IMG/VR virus record: IMGVR_UViG_2645727715_000004 | Source of the DNA: a virus | Taxonomy: Duplodnaviria; Heunggongvirae; Uroviricota; Caudoviricetes | Reading direction: 5' to 3' (one strand) | Length of the DNA: 14,573 bases | In this document: positions 1 through 12,881 of the stretch, piece by piece | Layout: each line of letters starts with the position of its first letter | How positions within the stretch are numbered: the stretch's first letter is position 1 | Notes under the pieces: generated by a model | The model's database searches: none | Told to the model about the DNA's origin: nothing | Seen by the model: only the letters and a program-made list of their open reading frames with translations | Made by a program: the position numbers and the translations under genes

Positions 1-320
1 ATATCCGGAGTAATCCATGCATCGTATAGACACGAAAACCGCGCAGAAGGATAAGTTCGGCGCGGGTAAGAACGGTTTTACCCGTGGTAACCCCCAGATC
101 GGCACGCCTGCCACCGATCTGGATGATGACTACTTTGACATGTTGCAGGAGGAGCTTTGCAGCGTTGTGGAGGCGTCCGGTGCCAGCCTGGAGAAGGGGC
201 GGCACGACCAGCTACTTACCGCGCTTCGCGCGCTGCTGTTAAGCCGCAAGAATCCGTTTGGCGATATCAAATCGGATGGCACGGTGAAAACGGCTCTCGA
301 AAACCTTGGTTTGGGAGAAG
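1..320. repeat. Left arm of a 320-bp perfect inverted repeat; carries the RBS and first 101 codons of the tail-fibre gene; outer end coincides with the window edge
   Basis: Reverse complement of 2194..2513 checked base by base at both ends and over 1..114; ORF-track translations at 17..445(+) and 1697..2497(-) are identical for 101 aa. Identity ends at 320/2194. Confidence 0.95.
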
Positions 321-4134: not shown

Positions 4135-4550
4135 GCGTTATCGCACTCCACAGATCATCAAAAGAAATCATTACCGGTCCGTCACGACGCCAGAGGGTGA
4201 TACTGTTACCCAGCTCATTAATCCCGGTGCGGCGGATATCCAGATCAATACGGGACACCACGCCGTCATCAGTCATCCATTGGAGGCATTCGCGGATATA
4301 CCCCCTTACTGTCTGCACCAGCTGATTGGTCAGTTTGCTGCGCTGAAGCAGCCACAGTCGGGAGCCGTAACGGTCATTCTGTCACCGCAGGCCAGGTATC
4401 CCCCCACCATCCCATCGGGACGTCGGCGTTGTCATCAGGCTCCGCCCGCCGCCAGGTAAACAGGGAAATCACCACGGCGCGGGTCAGCGGATCCAGCGGT
4501 GCGCTGGCGCAGGTGCGTTTACCGTTCACCGTCAGCCACAGTTCCATCAT
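4121..4550 (-). CDS. Baseplate protein, Mu gp46-like (gp25/GPW-like), interrupted by a frameshift near 4374..4382
   Basis: ATG at 4550 opens a 58-codon frame ending TGA at about 4376; the +1 frame continues (QNDRYGSRLWLLQRSKLTNQLVQTVRGY...) to the stop at 4121. Combined length about 143 aa matches the family. Confidence 0.55.
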
Positions 4551-7559: not shown

Positions 7560-9393
7560 TTACCTGCCAAAGCGCGTATAGCCAACATCATGGCTGACAT
7601 CAAAACCGCTGGATCGCGTTTCCATAACCCGCATACCCGGAGGCGAATTCACAAAAGAGACCTTGATCTCACCATCAACTTTTGGCGCAGAAGCTTTGTT
7701 AATCATGAAGGGATTCGGGCCTGTGGCATCGGAGGCGTTGTTTGATTGAGCCGGATCTACCGCCGGATAAGGTGTGTATCCCCGCGCCGGTATTCCCGTC
7801 CCATAAGCATCATAAGCACCCGCGCCCCACTGCGCAGAGTTAATGGCATCGACCGTGTCACCGGAACTGTCGGTAAACCACTCAATAATTGGCTTCAGCT
7901 TGTCCCACATATCCTGAAACCACTTAACAACCGGTCCCCAGTTATTGATCACTATCCCCAGCGGCGACCAGGCAAAAACCTTCTTAAGAAGTTCCCAGCC
8001 AGCCTCAAAATAAGGACCAATGGTTTCCCAGAGTTTCTTAAAATAAGGTCCGACAACATCCCAGTTAGTGATAATTAATCCCGCAGCCAGGCTATCGCCG
8101 TCGCAATCATGCCAATCGGCGTCATCGACATAATCCTGCTGACAATACTGATGGCACCGCCAACGCCCATCAATCCCAGTTTCAGAATCGCAAGACCGGC
8201 AGCAAGCCCGACGACGCCGCGAATAACCCGGGGATTTTCATCCGCAAACTTCGTGAATTTTTCCCCTAACTCCCCCAGCCATTGCGTGATATTTTTGGCG
8301 TCACCAGAAAATGCGCCGCCAATAGCCGCAAGGCCGTTAGTTGCGGTCCCCGTCATTGCCTCCCACAGGTTGGACAGCGTTCCAAGCTGGGCCTGAACAC
8401 GTTTATTCAGGCTGGCCTGTTTATTCATCTTCTGCTGGATCTGATCGTAGCCATCCTTTCCTTTATCGATTAGTGCATTGACCACCTGAAGGGTTTCGGC
8501 ATCATCACCAAATATTGCCTTAAGTACACCTGTTCGCTTAACGTCTGTCAGTTTTCGCAGCTTTGCCAGTTGCTTAAACATGTTATCAAGACCGCCAAAA
8601 CTCCCTTTGCCGTCAGTAAAATCGAGCTGCACTCCGAGTTTCTGGCGGGCCATGACTTTATTGACGTCCCTGATTTTCTTAACGCTTAATCCGGACTGGA
8701 TAACTTTTCGCAGGGCATTACCTGCCGACTCCCCGTTCATCCCCATCTGATCCATCATGACGCTGATAGGGGCAAGGCTCTGTGCAGCCTGAAGTCCGTC
8801 CTTATTCACCATCTTCAGAACAGAACTGGTTTTAGTGAAGAAGGACAACATGTTGGTATCGTCAACGCCCAGATAAAACGCCTTCTGGATAGTGTCGAAC
8901 AGCCCCATCATGTCTTCTGACGCCGTTCCGGTAGCATCCTGCATCTTTGCAGCAAACTCAGCAGCCGCTTCCGGTGTTTTTTTCAGTTGTACCGCAAGAT
9001 AAGCTGTCGCTTTACCCACACCACCAAGAATGTTTTCTGCCGGGATCCCTGACGCACCAGCATCTGCATCATGTTCTGGAAATCAGCCGTTGTACCGGGT
9101 AGCTGGTTACCCAGGCCAATAGCCAGTTTATTGATGTCCTGAAAGCTCTTTCCAACCTCGCCGTTCGCATCCATCATAGCGACTTTCAGCCCGGTGGCGG
9201 CGTTTTCCTGATCAGCATAAGATTTCAGGGAAAGCGTCAGACCCGCTGCCAGTCCGCCACCAAGCGCCAGCCCACCCTGTGACGCTTCTTCCGCCTGGCG
9301 TTTAAATCCCCGGATTTTCTTTTGCATTTTCGACAGCGCGGGAGAAAGCCTGTCGACACCGGTGATCAACGCCTTAAGCTCAAATTCAGCCAT
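7560..9393 (-). CDS. Tail tape measure protein, interrupted by two apparent 1-nt deletions (about 9042..9054 and 8071..8080)
   Basis: Three consecutive minus-strand ORFs (8983..9393, 8075..9019, 7560..7952) form one roughly 612-codon reading frame if one base is restored at each junction (VRQG|IPAENILGG and WLRD|LIITNW). Shows the hydrophobic segment and W-rich C-terminal repeats typical of tape measure proteins. Confidence 0.7.
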
Positions 9394-9804
9394 GTGTGCG
9401 TTTCTCCTGCTCTATCCTGTTTGCCTGACTGACCAGCAAGGGAATTTCACTGATCGGCATATTCAGCAATTCGAAGGGATTAATGCGCCAGTAGCTGGCG
9501 CAGTCAAAGAAGCGATCAGTGAGGTATTCAGCCGTCAGGCCTGGAGGAAAAAACCAGCCACAAGCCACGCCGCTGCATTCAGGTCTGCCGGAGACATCTG
9601 GTCGACAGAGCTTTGCGGCACTTTCGCCAGCCGCACAATGTATTTCGACACCACATGCGCCAGAAGTCTGACGGACTCATCCTGATTCATCTGGTAGGGA
9701 TACCCCAGCTCGCGGACATCCTTCCCGGTGGGCTCATCAAACTCCAGTACGGAGAGTGTCTCACCATGAGCGATAATCGGTTTCTTTAACTCAAGCTCTT
9801 TCAT
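9386..9804 (-). CDS. Tail assembly chaperone frameshift fusion product (gpGT / gpE+E' analogue) made by programmed -1 ribosomal frameshift
   Basis: The -1 frame ORF 9386..9568 overlaps the 3' end of the chaperone ORF and ends 8 nt inside the tape measure start; slippery heptamer T_TTT_TTC lies in the overlap. Confidence 0.65.
9535..9804 (-). CDS. Tail assembly chaperone (lambda gpG / P2 gpE analogue)
   Basis: 89-aa ORF between tube and tape measure genes; carries the slippery site at its 3' end. Confidence 0.75.
   Translation of the reverse strand: MKELELKKPIIAHGETLSVLEFDEPTGKDVRELGYPYQMNQDESVRLLAHVVSKYIVRLAKVPQSSVDQMSPADLNAAAWLVAGFFLQA
9547..9553 (-). other. Slippery heptamer T TTT TTC for the programmed -1 frameshift
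   Basis: Minus-strand codons GGT TTT TTC in the zero frame; plus-strand gaaaaaa at 9547..9553. Confidence 0.6.
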
Positions 9805-10160
9805 TACTGGTAATCCCCTTCTTCACCGTGGAACTCAAGATCAACCGTGCCTTCTTCGGCATTATGGTTCGCTTCTCCGTGCAGCCAGGCGGACGACAAT
9901 ACATAGACCTGACCGTTCGCCAGCTCGGCAGTGATAGTCATCTCATCAGACGAGGTGATTTTGTTCACCGGAAAATTCTTCGGCACCTTGAAAGTCCCTT
10001 TGACATAAGGCGCACGGTGAGTTTCCTTGCGGTCCACTGAACCGTCCAGGCCGATGATGTCATCATTGACCGTCCTGTTCATGGGCACCTCAATGCCGCC
10101 GGTCAGCGATAGCTGTTGACCGTCAATTTTGAAATAACAGGTTCCCCCGATACGGGCCAT
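9804..10160 (-). CDS. Tail tube protein (Mu gpM-like)
   Basis: 118-aa ORF immediately downstream of the sheath gene, start overlapping the sheath stop. Confidence 0.75.
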   Translation of the reverse strand: MARIGGTCYFKIDGQQLSLTGGIEVPMNRTVNDDIIGLDGSVDRKETHRAPYVKGTFKVPKNFPVNKITSSDEMTITAELANGQVYVLSSAWLHGEANHNAEEGTVDLEFHGEEGDYQ

Positions 10161-11656
10161 TATGCAGACTCCTCTGAATACTGAAGACGGAACTGGTTAA
10201 CCACGGCAAAGACACGCAACTGGTTAACATAGTCAGGCGGGAACAGCGTGTTCAGGCGGTTCGGATCGCTGGCATCACGCTCCACAACCAGGTACTGCTT
10301 AAACAGTTCGTAGTTTTCCACGATCCCCGCACGCTCAAGCTGACGGTAGGTTGCCAGCAGTTCCCCTTTGATCACCGCCGGTGTGACAATCGCCTGACCG
10401 GGACCAAAGCGGGTACCGTCGCTGGCAAGCTTGTGACGCCCGTACTTACTGGTAATGACGGATTTCAGTTTGCGCAGTACATACGCGCTGGTATGCAGCG
10501 TCTCGCTGTCGAGGTAGCTGTTATCCGCAACACCGTAAGCGTTTTTCCTGTACGTGGTGACATCACGCTGAATGCGCAGCACCCCGCTTTCGACATACGC
10601 CGTTGCCACGCCATGAGACAGCAGGGTCTGTTGTTCGGTCATCGTGAACCGTTTCCCCTTCGGCGCAGGCAGCATACCCACCAGTTCACCGGTCTGCGTG
10701 GGACGTGCCGGATCGTTGCGAATAAACACCGCTGCGCGGGCGGTACGGCTTGCCGCCAGCTCGTCGGCAGGCGTCTGGGTCTCTTTTTCGTATCCCGCCA
10801 GGGTAATGTGCTGCTGGTTAAACTGGTCACCTGCGGTCACCAGTTCTGACAGCGTGCCGGTCTTTGCCGTATACACATGACCATACAGCTGACGCGCATA
10901 GCTCCAGCGACCGCTGGTATCGTTCATCTCGGTCACCAGCGTGTTAACGGAGGCCGTGTCGTTGAACGGCAGGCCGATATAATCAAACGGCTCATCCGCC
11001 ATTGCAGCCACCGCGCCGGTGAGAACCGGAGCGCCCGTTCCGGCGATCCCCGTCGCCACGGCAATCTGTACGCCCGCTGGCAGCACTTCGCCCCCACCAA
11101 AGCCGTAGTAATTGAGGCTGACAGGAATTTCATTCCCGCAAAGCCCCTTATGACGCGCGGTCAGTGTGACCACGCCTGCCGAAGATGAGGCAGTAAACGG
11201 CAGGGTCGGAACGGCATTGATGGCATCTTTGATACTGCTGGCAATCGTCGCGACGTTATCGCCGTTGGTCACCGGTGCCTGCACGCGGGTACGTCCCACA
11301 TAAACATTCACCGTGCCGGTTTCGGTTGCCGCGCCGGTCACCGTCAGCGTAACTGTTGCCGCCGCGCCCGTGGATTCAGGAACGGCAATCACATACAGTT
11401 CACCAAACGGGTCGGTCTGGCGATAAGCCTCGACCATACGCGCCAGCTGACTTCCCGCACCACAAATCTGGCGTGCATAGTCTGCCGATGGCATCAGCAC
11501 CAGACTGTTGGCAACAATCTCTGCACCGTTATTGGCATGACCAATCAGCAGCGATGCTCCGCTGTCCTGTGCAGTATTCGCCGCCGAGTTATCCATTTCC
11601 GCATAAAAAATCGGAACCAGCGTATTCGACGGAATGGTGTTAAAGCTTATCGTCAT
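10160..11656 (-). CDS. Contractile tail sheath protein (Mu gpL-like)
   Basis: 498-aa ORF, N-terminus MTISFNTIPSNTLVPIFYAEMDNS typical of Mu-like sheath proteins; followed by tube and chaperone genes. Confidence 0.85.
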   Translation of the reverse strand: MTISFNTIPSNTLVPIFYAEMDNSAANTAQDSGASLLIGHANNGAEIVANSLVLMPSADYARQICGAGSQLARMVEAYRQTDPFGELYVIAVPESTGAAATVTLTVTGAATETGTVNVYVGRTRVQAPVTNGDNVATIASSIKDAINAVPTLPFTASSSAGVVTLTARHKGLCGNEIPVSLNYYGFGGGEVLPAGVQIAVATGIAGTGAPVLTGAVAAMADEPFDYIGLPFNDTASVNTLVTEMNDTSGRWSYARQLYGHVYTAKTGTLSELVTAGDQFNQQHITLAGYEKETQTPADELAASRTARAAVFIRNDPARPTQTGELVGMLPAPKGKRFTMTEQQTLLSHGVATAYVESGVLRIQRDVTTYRKNAYGVADNSYLDSETLHTSAYVLRKLKSVITSKYGRHKLASDGTRFGPGQAIVTPAVIKGELLATYRQLERAGIVENYELFKQYLVVERDASDPNRLNTLFPPDYVNQLRVFAVVNQFRLQYSEESA

Positions 11657-11818: not shown

Positions 11819-12379
11819 TCAGGAAGGAAGGGTTATTTCGGTGTGATGTTCGATATCGCCGTCAGGCCCGTTACCGGGATCGAGATAATCAACATCAATC
11901 GCCAGCGTTCGCAGTTCATCCAGACTGTTCAGGTCATCCTGCTGGCGGGTATCGTCTTCGGTCAGCTCGCTGATGACCGAAAAATCGAACTGATAAATCA
12001 GCTCATGACGATTCAGATCCAGCAGCGTGCCGCCGTCATAGGTAATCGGGTTACCGCACGCTTCCGGGTTCCAGCCCAGCAGGGCCTTAAAGAGCATCTG
12101 CCGGACATCGTCCACCACATCATACGAAGCAAACTGACCGCGCTCATCACGCCCGTTACTCAGTATGACAACCACGGAGAAGCCCTCTTTCAGCTCCTGC
12201 CAGTAGTCGGTCTGGCTTTTGTTTTCTCCCGGAGAATCATCACCCGGTACAACATATGCCGCCGGGAGTTTCAGCTTTCCGACCTCCGGCAGATTTTTGA
12301 ACTGGGCCGCGCCTGCAACCCGGTTTTCAAAATACGGACAGCGGGCACGCAGTGCAGCAATAACAGGCGTCAGTTTCAT
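11819..12379 (-). CDS. Putative neck / tail-completion (tail terminator-like) protein
   Basis: 186-aa ORF between the gp10-like neck gene and the sheath; function assigned by position only. Confidence 0.45.
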   Translation of the reverse strand: MKLTPVIAALRARCPYFENRVAGAAQFKNLPEVGKLKLPAAYVVPGDDSPGENKSQTDYWQELKEGFSVVVILSNGRDERGQFASYDVVDDVRQMLFKALLGWNPEACGNPITYDGGTLLDLNRHELIYQFDFSVISELTEDDTRQQDDLNSLDELRTLAIDVDYLDPGNGPDGDIEHHTEITLPS

Positions 12380-12881
12380 CTGTGTCGTCGCTCCGGCTTC
12401 AGTGATTTACGCAATTCCCGCGCCAGAAAATAGCGTGTCCAGCTGCGGTTCTTTTCAAGCGTTTCCACCATGAAGTTATTACGTGGAGCCAGTCGCCAGC
12501 CGCTGCCACCGGATGCACCACGATGATGGCTGCGACGACGCTTTGCCCCTCGCCTCACGCCATAGAACAAAAAAGCCGGATAAAAATCACCGGTGATACG
12601 GCGGTTTCCCTCTCCATTACGCTGGTTAGGGGCTATACGTGCCATAAAACCAGGGCGATGTTTACTGGCTCTGGGTACCATGTAACCAATCGAACGAGCC
12701 AGGCGTCCGGTCTGATAACCGGGGTTTTCACCCGGTGCCGACCGCGCACGGCGCATCACCAGCGACGGGCATCACGCATATGACGCTGACCAATCGTGAC
12801 AAACGCCCGCCGGACACGGGCGCGGTTAAAGCGCATCTCCGCGGGCTGCTGAAAATCAACGTGCAAAAAGGAAGTCGTCAT
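12376..12881 (-). CDS. HK97 gp10-family head-tail joining protein, interrupted by an apparent 1-nt deletion near 12757..12766
   Basis: ATG at 12881 gives MTTSFLHVDFQQPAEMRFNRARVRRAFVTIGQRHMRDARRW then stop; the -1 frame continues as VMRRARSAPGENPGYQTGRLARS... to 12376. Restoring one base makes one roughly 168-aa protein. Confidence 0.55.

Follow-up and report, generated by a model that had tools for sequence, protein, structure and literature searches.

A putative programmed −1 ribosomal frameshift site in the tail assembly chaperone gene of an SfV/SfII-type phage

In annotated relatives of the virus studied here, a 270-nt tail assembly chaperone ORF is separated from the tape-measure gene by a 141-nt gap, which raises the question of whether this gap is empty, as annotated, or encodes the C-terminal part of a second, longer chaperone that is reached by a change of reading frame. 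The window, meaning the whole stretch of 14,573 nucleotides that was analyzed (IMG/VR record IMGVR_UViG_2645727715_000004), derives from a prophage of an SfV/SfII-type temperate myophage with a Mu-like contractile tail module, and the genes considered here are encoded on its minus strand. A 901-nt query running from the tube gene to the tape-measure start (9300-10200) shares 97.8-99.2% identity with SfII, SfI, SfV, SKA5 and vB_EcoM-689R6, which are Shigella and Escherichia phages. Prophages matching the query are present in 1099 of the 5426 complete E. coli genomes, approximately a fifth. Gene order in the annotated relatives begins with the tail sheath (Mu L-like), the tail tube (Mu M-like) and the 270-nt chaperone ORF, and continues after the gap with the tape-measure gene and baseplate genes resembling Mu N, P and gp45-48. 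The chaperone pair described below thus occupies the position between tube and tape-measure genes that is typical of the conserved class of tail-chaperone frameshifts.

The records of SfV, SfII, SfI and SKA5, together with the NCBI (PGAP) annotation of an E. coli NH-21 prophage, contain the 270-nt ORF only and leave the gap empty. Neither these five nor the vB_EcoM-689R6 record includes a joined ribosomal-slippage CDS or a 139-aa trans-frame chaperone, and our literature search found no paper describing a frameshift or a 15.8-kDa product in SfV-group phages. The survey published by Xu and co-workers in 2004 is said to have taken in most phage genomes then available, and SfV may be listed there.

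The analysis presented here indicates that the 3′ end of the chaperone gene very probably carries a programmed −1 ribosomal frameshift site, at which the ribosome would pass into an ORF filling the gap. The features of the region are as follows, with positions given in the window.

10160-11656, minus strand: tail sheath gene
9804-10160, minus strand: tail tube gene (Mu gpM-like), overlapping the chaperone start; from the ORF and the annotation of relatives
9535-9804, minus strand: zero-frame tail assembly chaperone of 89 aa and 9.9 kDa, equivalent to SfV orf13 and a likely analogue of gpG/gpE; from the ORF and the PF10109 match
9547-9553, minus strand: putative slippery heptamer T_TTT_TTC in X_XXY_YYZ phase, with TTT in the P site and TTC in the A site; from sequence and conservation
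9535-9537, minus strand: zero-frame TGA of the short product, three sense codons past the heptamer
9386-9547, minus strand: −1-frame extension of 53 sense codons (PPGLTAEY...EQEKRTHG) followed by TGA; from dN/dS and the match to phrog_32181
9484-9502, minus strand: 8-bp GC-rich hairpin, UGCGCCAG-CUA-CUGGCGCA, within extension codons 16-21
9404-9408, minus strand: AGGAG Shine-Dalgarno sequence, within the last codons of the extension
9386-9393, minus strand: 8-nt overlap, ATGGCTGA, between the tape-measure ATG (9393-9391) and the trans-frame stop TGA (9388-9386)
7560-9393, minus strand: tape measure gene, divided into three ORFs in the window by single-base deletions at 9050 and 8092

The chaperone ORF matches Pfam PF10109 (Phage_TAC_7) over residues 4-86 with an E-value of 2.4e-15 and a score of 56.7 bits against a cutoff of 25, and the Pfam description of this family, "Phage tail assembly chaperone proteins, E, or 41 or 14", places it with P2 gpE and Mu gp41. 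It also matches phrog_166, annotated as "tail protein", and in related records the same gene is labelled "phage tail assembly protein" or "small tail protein E".

In the zero frame, this gene ends GCT GGT TTT TTC CTC CAG GCC TGA, with GGT at 9555-9553, TTT at 9552-9550, TTC at 9549-9547 and the stop at 9537-9535 (minus strand). A preliminary description made from the sequence had placed a zero-frame T TTT TTC at the end of the gene, and the heptamer is indeed present there, occupying 9553-9547 in the canonical X_XXY_YYZ phase. The −1 frame opens at a GTG at 9568, and the two ORFs overlap over precisely the span previously assigned to the element, 9535-9568. Past a −1 slip the sequence would be read CCT CCA GGC CTG ACG and onward for 53 sense codons, one more than the approximately 52 first estimated, up to the TGA at 9388-9386, 8 nt inside the tape-measure gene. 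The predicted products are therefore a short protein of 89 aa (9.9 kDa) and a trans-frame protein of 139 aa (15.8 kDa). The predicted trans-frame sequence runs ...AGFF-PPGLTAEY...THG, with the junction peptide ...AGFFPPGLTAEY..., and around the slip junction it reads ...WLVAGFF followed by PPGLTAEYLTDR; the tryptic peptide that would span the junction is long.

Heptamers of the X_XXY_YYZ type are few in the window, with only 10 among the 4232 in-frame positions of 21 minus-strand genes. T_TTT_TTC is the only one of the ten that lies close to a gene end, and the only one that is followed by at least 53 open codons in the −1 frame. An open −1 frame of this length follows 8.7% of in-frame positions in the window, the median being 10 codons.

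Conservation of the arrangement was assessed in relatives collected by a scan of one genome per bacterial species, which yielded 20 loci ranging from 100% down to 38% protein identity. These loci come from, among others, Shigella, Edwardsiella, Buttiauxella, Citrobacter, Pantoea, Kosakonia, Enterobacter, uncultured proteobacteria and the betaproteobacterium Derxia gummosa. The preliminary description had named conservation of the site in related phages as a test of its proposal, and the result is unequivocal: all 20 loci have an in-phase heptamer followed by an open −1 frame. The zero-frame phase is kept throughout, and the heptamer is TTTTTTC in every locus except two (L018 and L019), which have TTTTTTT. 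The −1 frame stays open for 42-50 codons beyond the zero-frame stop and ends at the start codon of the next gene, or a few nucleotides short of it in four of the 20 loci. Between the heptamer and the zero-frame stop there are anywhere from 3 to 14 codons, so that this stop does not belong to the conserved signal.

An alignment of 16 diverged chaperones shows the residues encoded at the site, G84-F85-F86, to be invariant or nearly so, and the question of whether selection acts here on the protein or on the nucleotides can be addressed by the use of synonymous codons. Among 16 unique sequences in the same register, 32 degenerate codon columns are invariant in amino acid; two to five synonymous codons are used in 29 of these, and variation is entirely absent only at Gly84 (GGT), Phe85 (TTT) and Phe86 (TTC). 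The probability that chance would single out precisely these three columns is 1/4960. The Ala codon immediately upstream of GGT varies freely between GCT, GCC, GCA and GCG. Codon usage in this alignment thus indicates that the heptamer is under selection at the nucleotide level.

The sequence beyond the zero-frame stop likewise behaves as coding sequence in the −1 frame. In 10 ungapped sequences, the numbers of variable columns at codon positions 1, 2 and 3 are 28, 18 and 40 of 49, and the pooled Nei-Gojobori dN/dS is 0.13 in the −1 frame as opposed to 1.40 and 1.21 in the other two; the sequence pairs share ancestry and the figures are therefore descriptive, however the contrast between frames is large. 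By this comparative measure, the extension evolves as a protein, with purifying selection in the −1 frame only. Its conserved motif in the alignment of relatives is (Y/F)FDCAxYWRINPxExL...LLxxQANRI. The extension matches phrog_32181 (function not known) with an E-value of 4e-40, which is its only family match; no Pfam or NCBIfam family was found for it, and NCBIfam returned no family for any of the three products. The extension family thus lies outside current Pfam coverage. It is also sparsely represented among predicted proteins, with only 10 proteins matching the −1 ORF in a collection of 5.8 billion, compared to well over a hundred clusters for the chaperone ORF. Six natural fusions of the two frames (P0001-P0006) were considered as evidence and set aside, as they are singletons on short contigs with indels at varied positions and are probably assembly errors. 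Structure prediction gave a helical model for the extension (pLDDT 71) and a mediocre one for the chaperone (pLDDT 67). Foldseek searches of these models against PDB and BFVD returned nothing below an E-value of 0.2, and a sequence search of PDB gave only spurious matches to light-harvesting-complex (LHCI) proteins.

The closest described system is the E/E+E′ pair of phage P2. The P2 chaperone belongs to the same Pfam family (PF10109) as the SfV-type chaperone, and both phages have contractile tails. In P2 the slip region reads GTC GGT TTT TTG TCG, the annotated frameshift lies on the last base of T_TTT_TTG, and the phase is the same as here; the heptamers differ in the final base, which is G in P2 and C in the window (T in two distant loci). 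The P2 products of 91 and 142 aa are close in size to the 89 and 139 aa predicted here, and the overlap with the tape-measure gene is 8 nt in each case (in P2, E+E′ ends at 19857 and T starts at 19850). P2 is reported not to need a stimulatory hairpin, and its relatives are likewise reported to have none downstream; none was found here. Review literature puts the P2 frameshift efficiency 2- to 3-fold above that of lambda. The surrounding tail genes also differ, being Mu-like in the window (homologues of Mup38-48) and not P2-like.

Whether the extension is itself a relative of P2 E′ bears on the earlier suggestion that it would show homology to chaperone T-domains, which finds weak support. A profile of the full-length fusion gives a collinear alignment with a profile of P2 E+E′ over residues 4-128, across the slip site, with an E-value of 2.9e-5. 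This match came from broader alignments; a comparison of a low-diversity chaperone alignment with P2 gpE was negative. Searches with PF06528 (Phage_P2_GpE, the E′ domain) gave no match for the fusion at E ≤ 1 or for 14 SfV-type extensions at E ≤ 10, while P2 E+E′ itself scores 76 bits against this model, and a BLAST comparison of the extension with P2 E′ also found no match. When the extension profile alone is compared with P2 E′, the probability is approximately 0.004-0.01, with 3 of 300 column shuffles equaling the observed score, and the alignment places DCAxYWRINPxELL in register with DVAVIFHWPPSELY of P2 E′. On these profile comparisons, homology of the extension to P2 E′ is plausible rather than established. 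By analogy with the known pairs, the extension would form the T/E′-like C-terminal domain of the 139-aa trans-frame product.

Phage lambda provides the second point of reference. The gpG/gpGT pair occupies the same slot between the major tail or tube gene and the tape-measure gene, and its long product also ends at the tape-measure start. The lambda heptamer is G_GGA_AAG as opposed to T_TTT_TTC, no sequence similarity links lambda G or T with the SfV-type proteins, and the lambda tail is flexible whereas the SfV-type tail is contractile; the domain roles described for lambda would apply to the SfV type by analogy. According to a review, the tail-chaperone frameshift arrangement surveyed by Xu, Hendrix & Duda (2004) is conserved independently of sequence similarity. 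The class is further characterized by two proteins with a common N-terminus, produced in a fixed ratio, which are each needed for tail assembly and are both missing from virions.

The third comparison is with Mu, where gp41 (Mup41) lies in the same slot of a syntenic tail module composed of sheath L, tube M, chaperone and tape measure. Mu reportedly uses a −2 shift, whereas the SfV type has a canonical −1 heptamer, and no Mu-type −2 shift at a non-heptamer site is indicated in the window, where the frame that is open after the site is the −1 frame. Mup41 is also longer, at 144 aa versus 89 aa for the SfV-type chaperone, and no similarity to it was detected with the chaperone profile made from the low-diversity alignment. 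Finding a P2-like −1 heptamer, and not the −2 shift known from Mu, in a Mu-like tail module agrees with a chaperone gene of mosaic origin. The G/GT or E/E+E′ type of −1 frameshift originally proposed for this locus is borne out by its position, its conserved in-phase heptamer and the purifying selection in the −1 frame, and it is well supported that the site is an ordinary instance of the conserved tail-chaperone frameshift, closest to P2 E/E+E′, within a Mu-like tail module. As such it opens no new question and its practical value lies in annotation: a joined CDS would correct many records and give the extension family a name.

By analogy with these systems, a simple course of events can be proposed. 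Most ribosomes would read GGT TTT TTC CTC CAG GCC TGA through in the zero frame and release the 89-aa chaperone. In a minority, the two tRNA-Phe on UUU in the P site and UUC in the A site would re-pair one base back, on U_UU and U_UU, and translation would then continue for 53 codons in the −1 frame to produce the 139-aa fusion, terminating at the TGA that overlaps the tape-measure ATG. On the model of lambda gpG/gpGT and P2 gpE/gpE+E′, the N-terminal domain common to both products would coat or bind the tape-measure protein, the C-terminal extension, present on few copies, would recruit or bind the tube protein, and the frequency of slipping would set the ratio of the two products for tail assembly. 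While the signal, its phase, its conservation and the coding character of the extension can be read from the aligned sequences, we infer that the fusion is made, in what abundance, and which partners its two domains bind.

A separate consideration is the state of this particular copy. The site may be intact but a fossil in this genome, in which a defective tail module would neither need nor select for a functional chaperone pair; this is possible, although we consider it on balance rather unlikely. Compared with a 98%-identical intact prophage of E. coli, three genes of the window are broken by single-base indels: two in the tape-measure gene, at 9050 (GGGG to GGG) and 8092 (CCC to CC), an inserted G at 4383 in the gp46 homologue, and a deletion at 12764 in the head-tail gene at approximately 12376-12860. 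The tape-measure gene is intact in related records, at 1836 nt, and neither deletion was found among the related loci containing these sites (0 of 83 at the 9050 site and 0 of 64 at the 8092 site). However, three of the four indels fall in short homopolymer runs, a pattern equally typical of sequencing or assembly error, and the chaperone, heptamer and extension do not differ from those of SfII and other functional phages. If the indels are real, the frameshift site would be without current function in this genome and would represent a well-preserved relic. This alternative concerns present-day function and not the identity of the element.

A different mechanism could in principle yield the same fusion, namely transcriptional slippage of RNA polymerase on the run of six T residues to give an mRNA lacking one U. 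The protein outcome would be identical, and the computed results do not directly tell one mechanism from the other. A homopolymeric U run is a substrate of transcriptional slippage, however six residues are short for efficient slippage by RNA polymerase. The NNT TTT TTY phase is held in all 20 loci and in P2, a constraint that is required by ribosomal and not by transcriptional slippage. The P2 case is described as a translational frameshift, and U_UU.U_UU.C is a measured ribosomal shifter in E. coli (PMC4066793). Transcriptional slippage is therefore quite improbable as the source of the fusion, and ribosomal slippage is retained as the preferred mechanism.

A further reading, which we regard as highly unlikely, takes the −1 ORF (9568-9386) as an independent small gene with its own GTG start, as annotated in vB_EcoM-689R6. 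A GTG does lie 15 nt upstream of the heptamer in the clade of the window, and the ORF appears as a separate hypothetical protein in that one record and in a few database entries. However, of 17 unique sequences only 8 have an ATG, GTG or TTG in the −1 frame ahead of the conserved residues; it lies 15 nt from the heptamer in each case but is not the same codon throughout, and the other 9 have no such start. The GTG of the window has no Shine-Dalgarno sequence, protein conservation begins only past the heptamer, the codon-level invariance falls on the heptamer itself, and the 141-nt gap contains no promoter-like or terminator-like site and no Rfam family. A chance open frame beside a chance run of T residues, with no product, is scarcely credible: a −1 frame of this length is open at 8.7% of positions, as noted above, but the low dN/dS is confined to the −1 frame, the heptamer codons are without synonymous variation, and motif, phase and ORF end are conserved down to 38% identity. 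Comparative sequence data thus contradict both chance and independent initiation.

The remaining question is whether the heptamer acts with an accessory signal. A downstream stimulatory structure, raised in the preliminary description as something to look for, was not recovered: folding of the window and of 16 unique relatives found none that is conserved at stimulatory distance. The 47 nt 3′ of the heptamer in the window fold no better than shuffled sequences (z +0.3), an 87-nt stretch gives z −1.9, and the 40 nt downstream in the 16 unique relatives have no common structure (z approximately 0 in the clade of the window, apart from one locus, L012, at −2.2). No SD-like element upstream of the heptamer is conserved among relatives. 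A signal of the dnaX or IS3 type was thus not found, either as a conserved structure (hairpin or pseudoknot) at 5-9 nt on the downstream side or as an SD-like element at 6-17 nt on the upstream side, and a scan of 9300-9900 for Rfam families, promoters and terminators returned nothing relevant. In E. coli, −1 shifting on UUUUUUC was measured at 0.12% with no stimulator, rising to 0.89% when the IS911 element was present and to 7.6% with that of IS3, and H_HH.U_UU.Y ranked among the most efficient motifs (Sharma et al. 2014, PMC4066793). As no conserved stimulator was found, the efficiency at this site could be as low as the approximately 0.1% of the bare motif.

One structure in the extension does stand out. 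The hairpin at 9502-9484 has a predicted energy of −14.2 kcal/mol and a z of −4.6, and it sits 44 nt 3′ of the heptamer. Synonymous variation is suppressed in its arms, with four of four degenerate codons frozen in 10 diverged sequences, and the arms are kept while the loop differs in two loci (L021 and L022); the hairpin is missing in four others (L017, L018, L020 and L023). It is not a classical stimulator, and its relevance is uncertain. It is conceivable, though we think it improbable, that the SfV-type signal is more than a bare heptamer, with the hairpin as a functional RNA element. In that event the hairpin might act on the mostly ribosome-free 141 nt between the chaperone stop and the tape-measure start, by protection against Rho or RNases or by tuning tape-measure initiation, or, less plausibly, by influencing frameshifting at a distance. 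Combined with an extension family for which PF06528 gives no match, such a hairpin would make the SfV-type locus a distinct variant of the tail-chaperone recoding cassette. Queuing of a second ribosome on the heptamer behind one stalled at the hairpin was set aside, as only ribosomes that have already shifted would reach the hairpin. Elsewhere among the relatives, a GGGAGG sequence upstream of the heptamer is confined to a diverged subclade (L016) and is lacking in the window, and GC-rich hairpins downstream of the heptamer in two loci (L018 and L023) are lineage-specific.

The extension, comprising the 53 sense codons read in the -1 frame after the proposed slippage at the T_TTT_TTC heptamer of the tail assembly chaperone gene, contains a hairpin with the following position and structure:

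Window 9484-9502, minus strand: GC-rich hairpin of 8 bp, UGCGCCAG-CUA-CUGGCGCA, within extension codons Cys16 to Arg21.

The predicted folding energy of this hairpin is -14.2 kcal/mol (z -4.6). Its arms hold four degenerate codons (TGC, GCC, TAC, and CGC), every one of which is codon-invariant across 10 diverged sequences, and the codons flanking the arms (Phe, Asp, Ile, and Pro) are variable (hypergeometric P ~0.002). Among the related loci compared, drawn from a scan of one genome per bacterial species, L021 and L022 retain the arms with an altered loop, L016 has shorter arms, and the arms are missing in L017, L018, L020, and L023. At 44 nt on the 3′ side of the heptamer, the hairpin is too distant for a classical frameshift stimulator.

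GC-rich hairpins located near the slip site, just 3′ of the heptamer, were observed in the distant relatives L018, L019, and L023. That of L018, GGGCUCG-GCGG-CGAGCCC, begins 2-3 nt past TTTTTTT (-15.4 kcal/mol, z -1.6), and that of L023 reaches -21.7 kcal/mol (z -2.8); these hairpins may be lineage-specific stimulators or a mere by-product of high G+C content.

Current gene callers and family databases are effectively blind to the extension domain: the -1 ORF (window 9386-9568) is matched by only 10 proteins in a collection of 5.8 billion, and the PHROG family to which it belongs (phrog_32181) carries the label "unknown function". The protein collection also contains a few "fused" versions covering chaperone and extension (P0001-P0006; 107-139 aa). 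All are singletons from short contigs and, in alignment, their indel positions differ. Errors in assembly or reads, not natural fusion, apparently account for them.

Comparison with an intact, 98% identical E. coli prophage identified four single-base indels in the window itself:

Window 9050: tape-measure gene broken.
Window 8092: tape-measure gene broken in a second place.
Window 4383: gp46-like baseplate gene broken.
Window 12764: head-tail gene at ~12376-12860 broken.

The two tape-measure deletions were not found in relatives (9050 in 0/83 loci, 8092 in 0/64 loci). The four indels have two possible origins: pseudogenisation private to this copy, or homopolymer sequencing error.

A further feature surrounds the tail-fibre genes:

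Window 1-320 and 2194-2513: perfect inverted repeat of 320 nt, the left arm touching the window edge.

The 1873 nt between the arms encode the C-terminal part of the tail fibre (Collar domain) and two tail-fibre assembly genes (Caudo_TAP) pointing in opposite orientations. No invertase gene was seen within the window. The arrangement resembles a host-range segment that is invertible or has been duplicated, although the repeats of the Mu G segment are far shorter.
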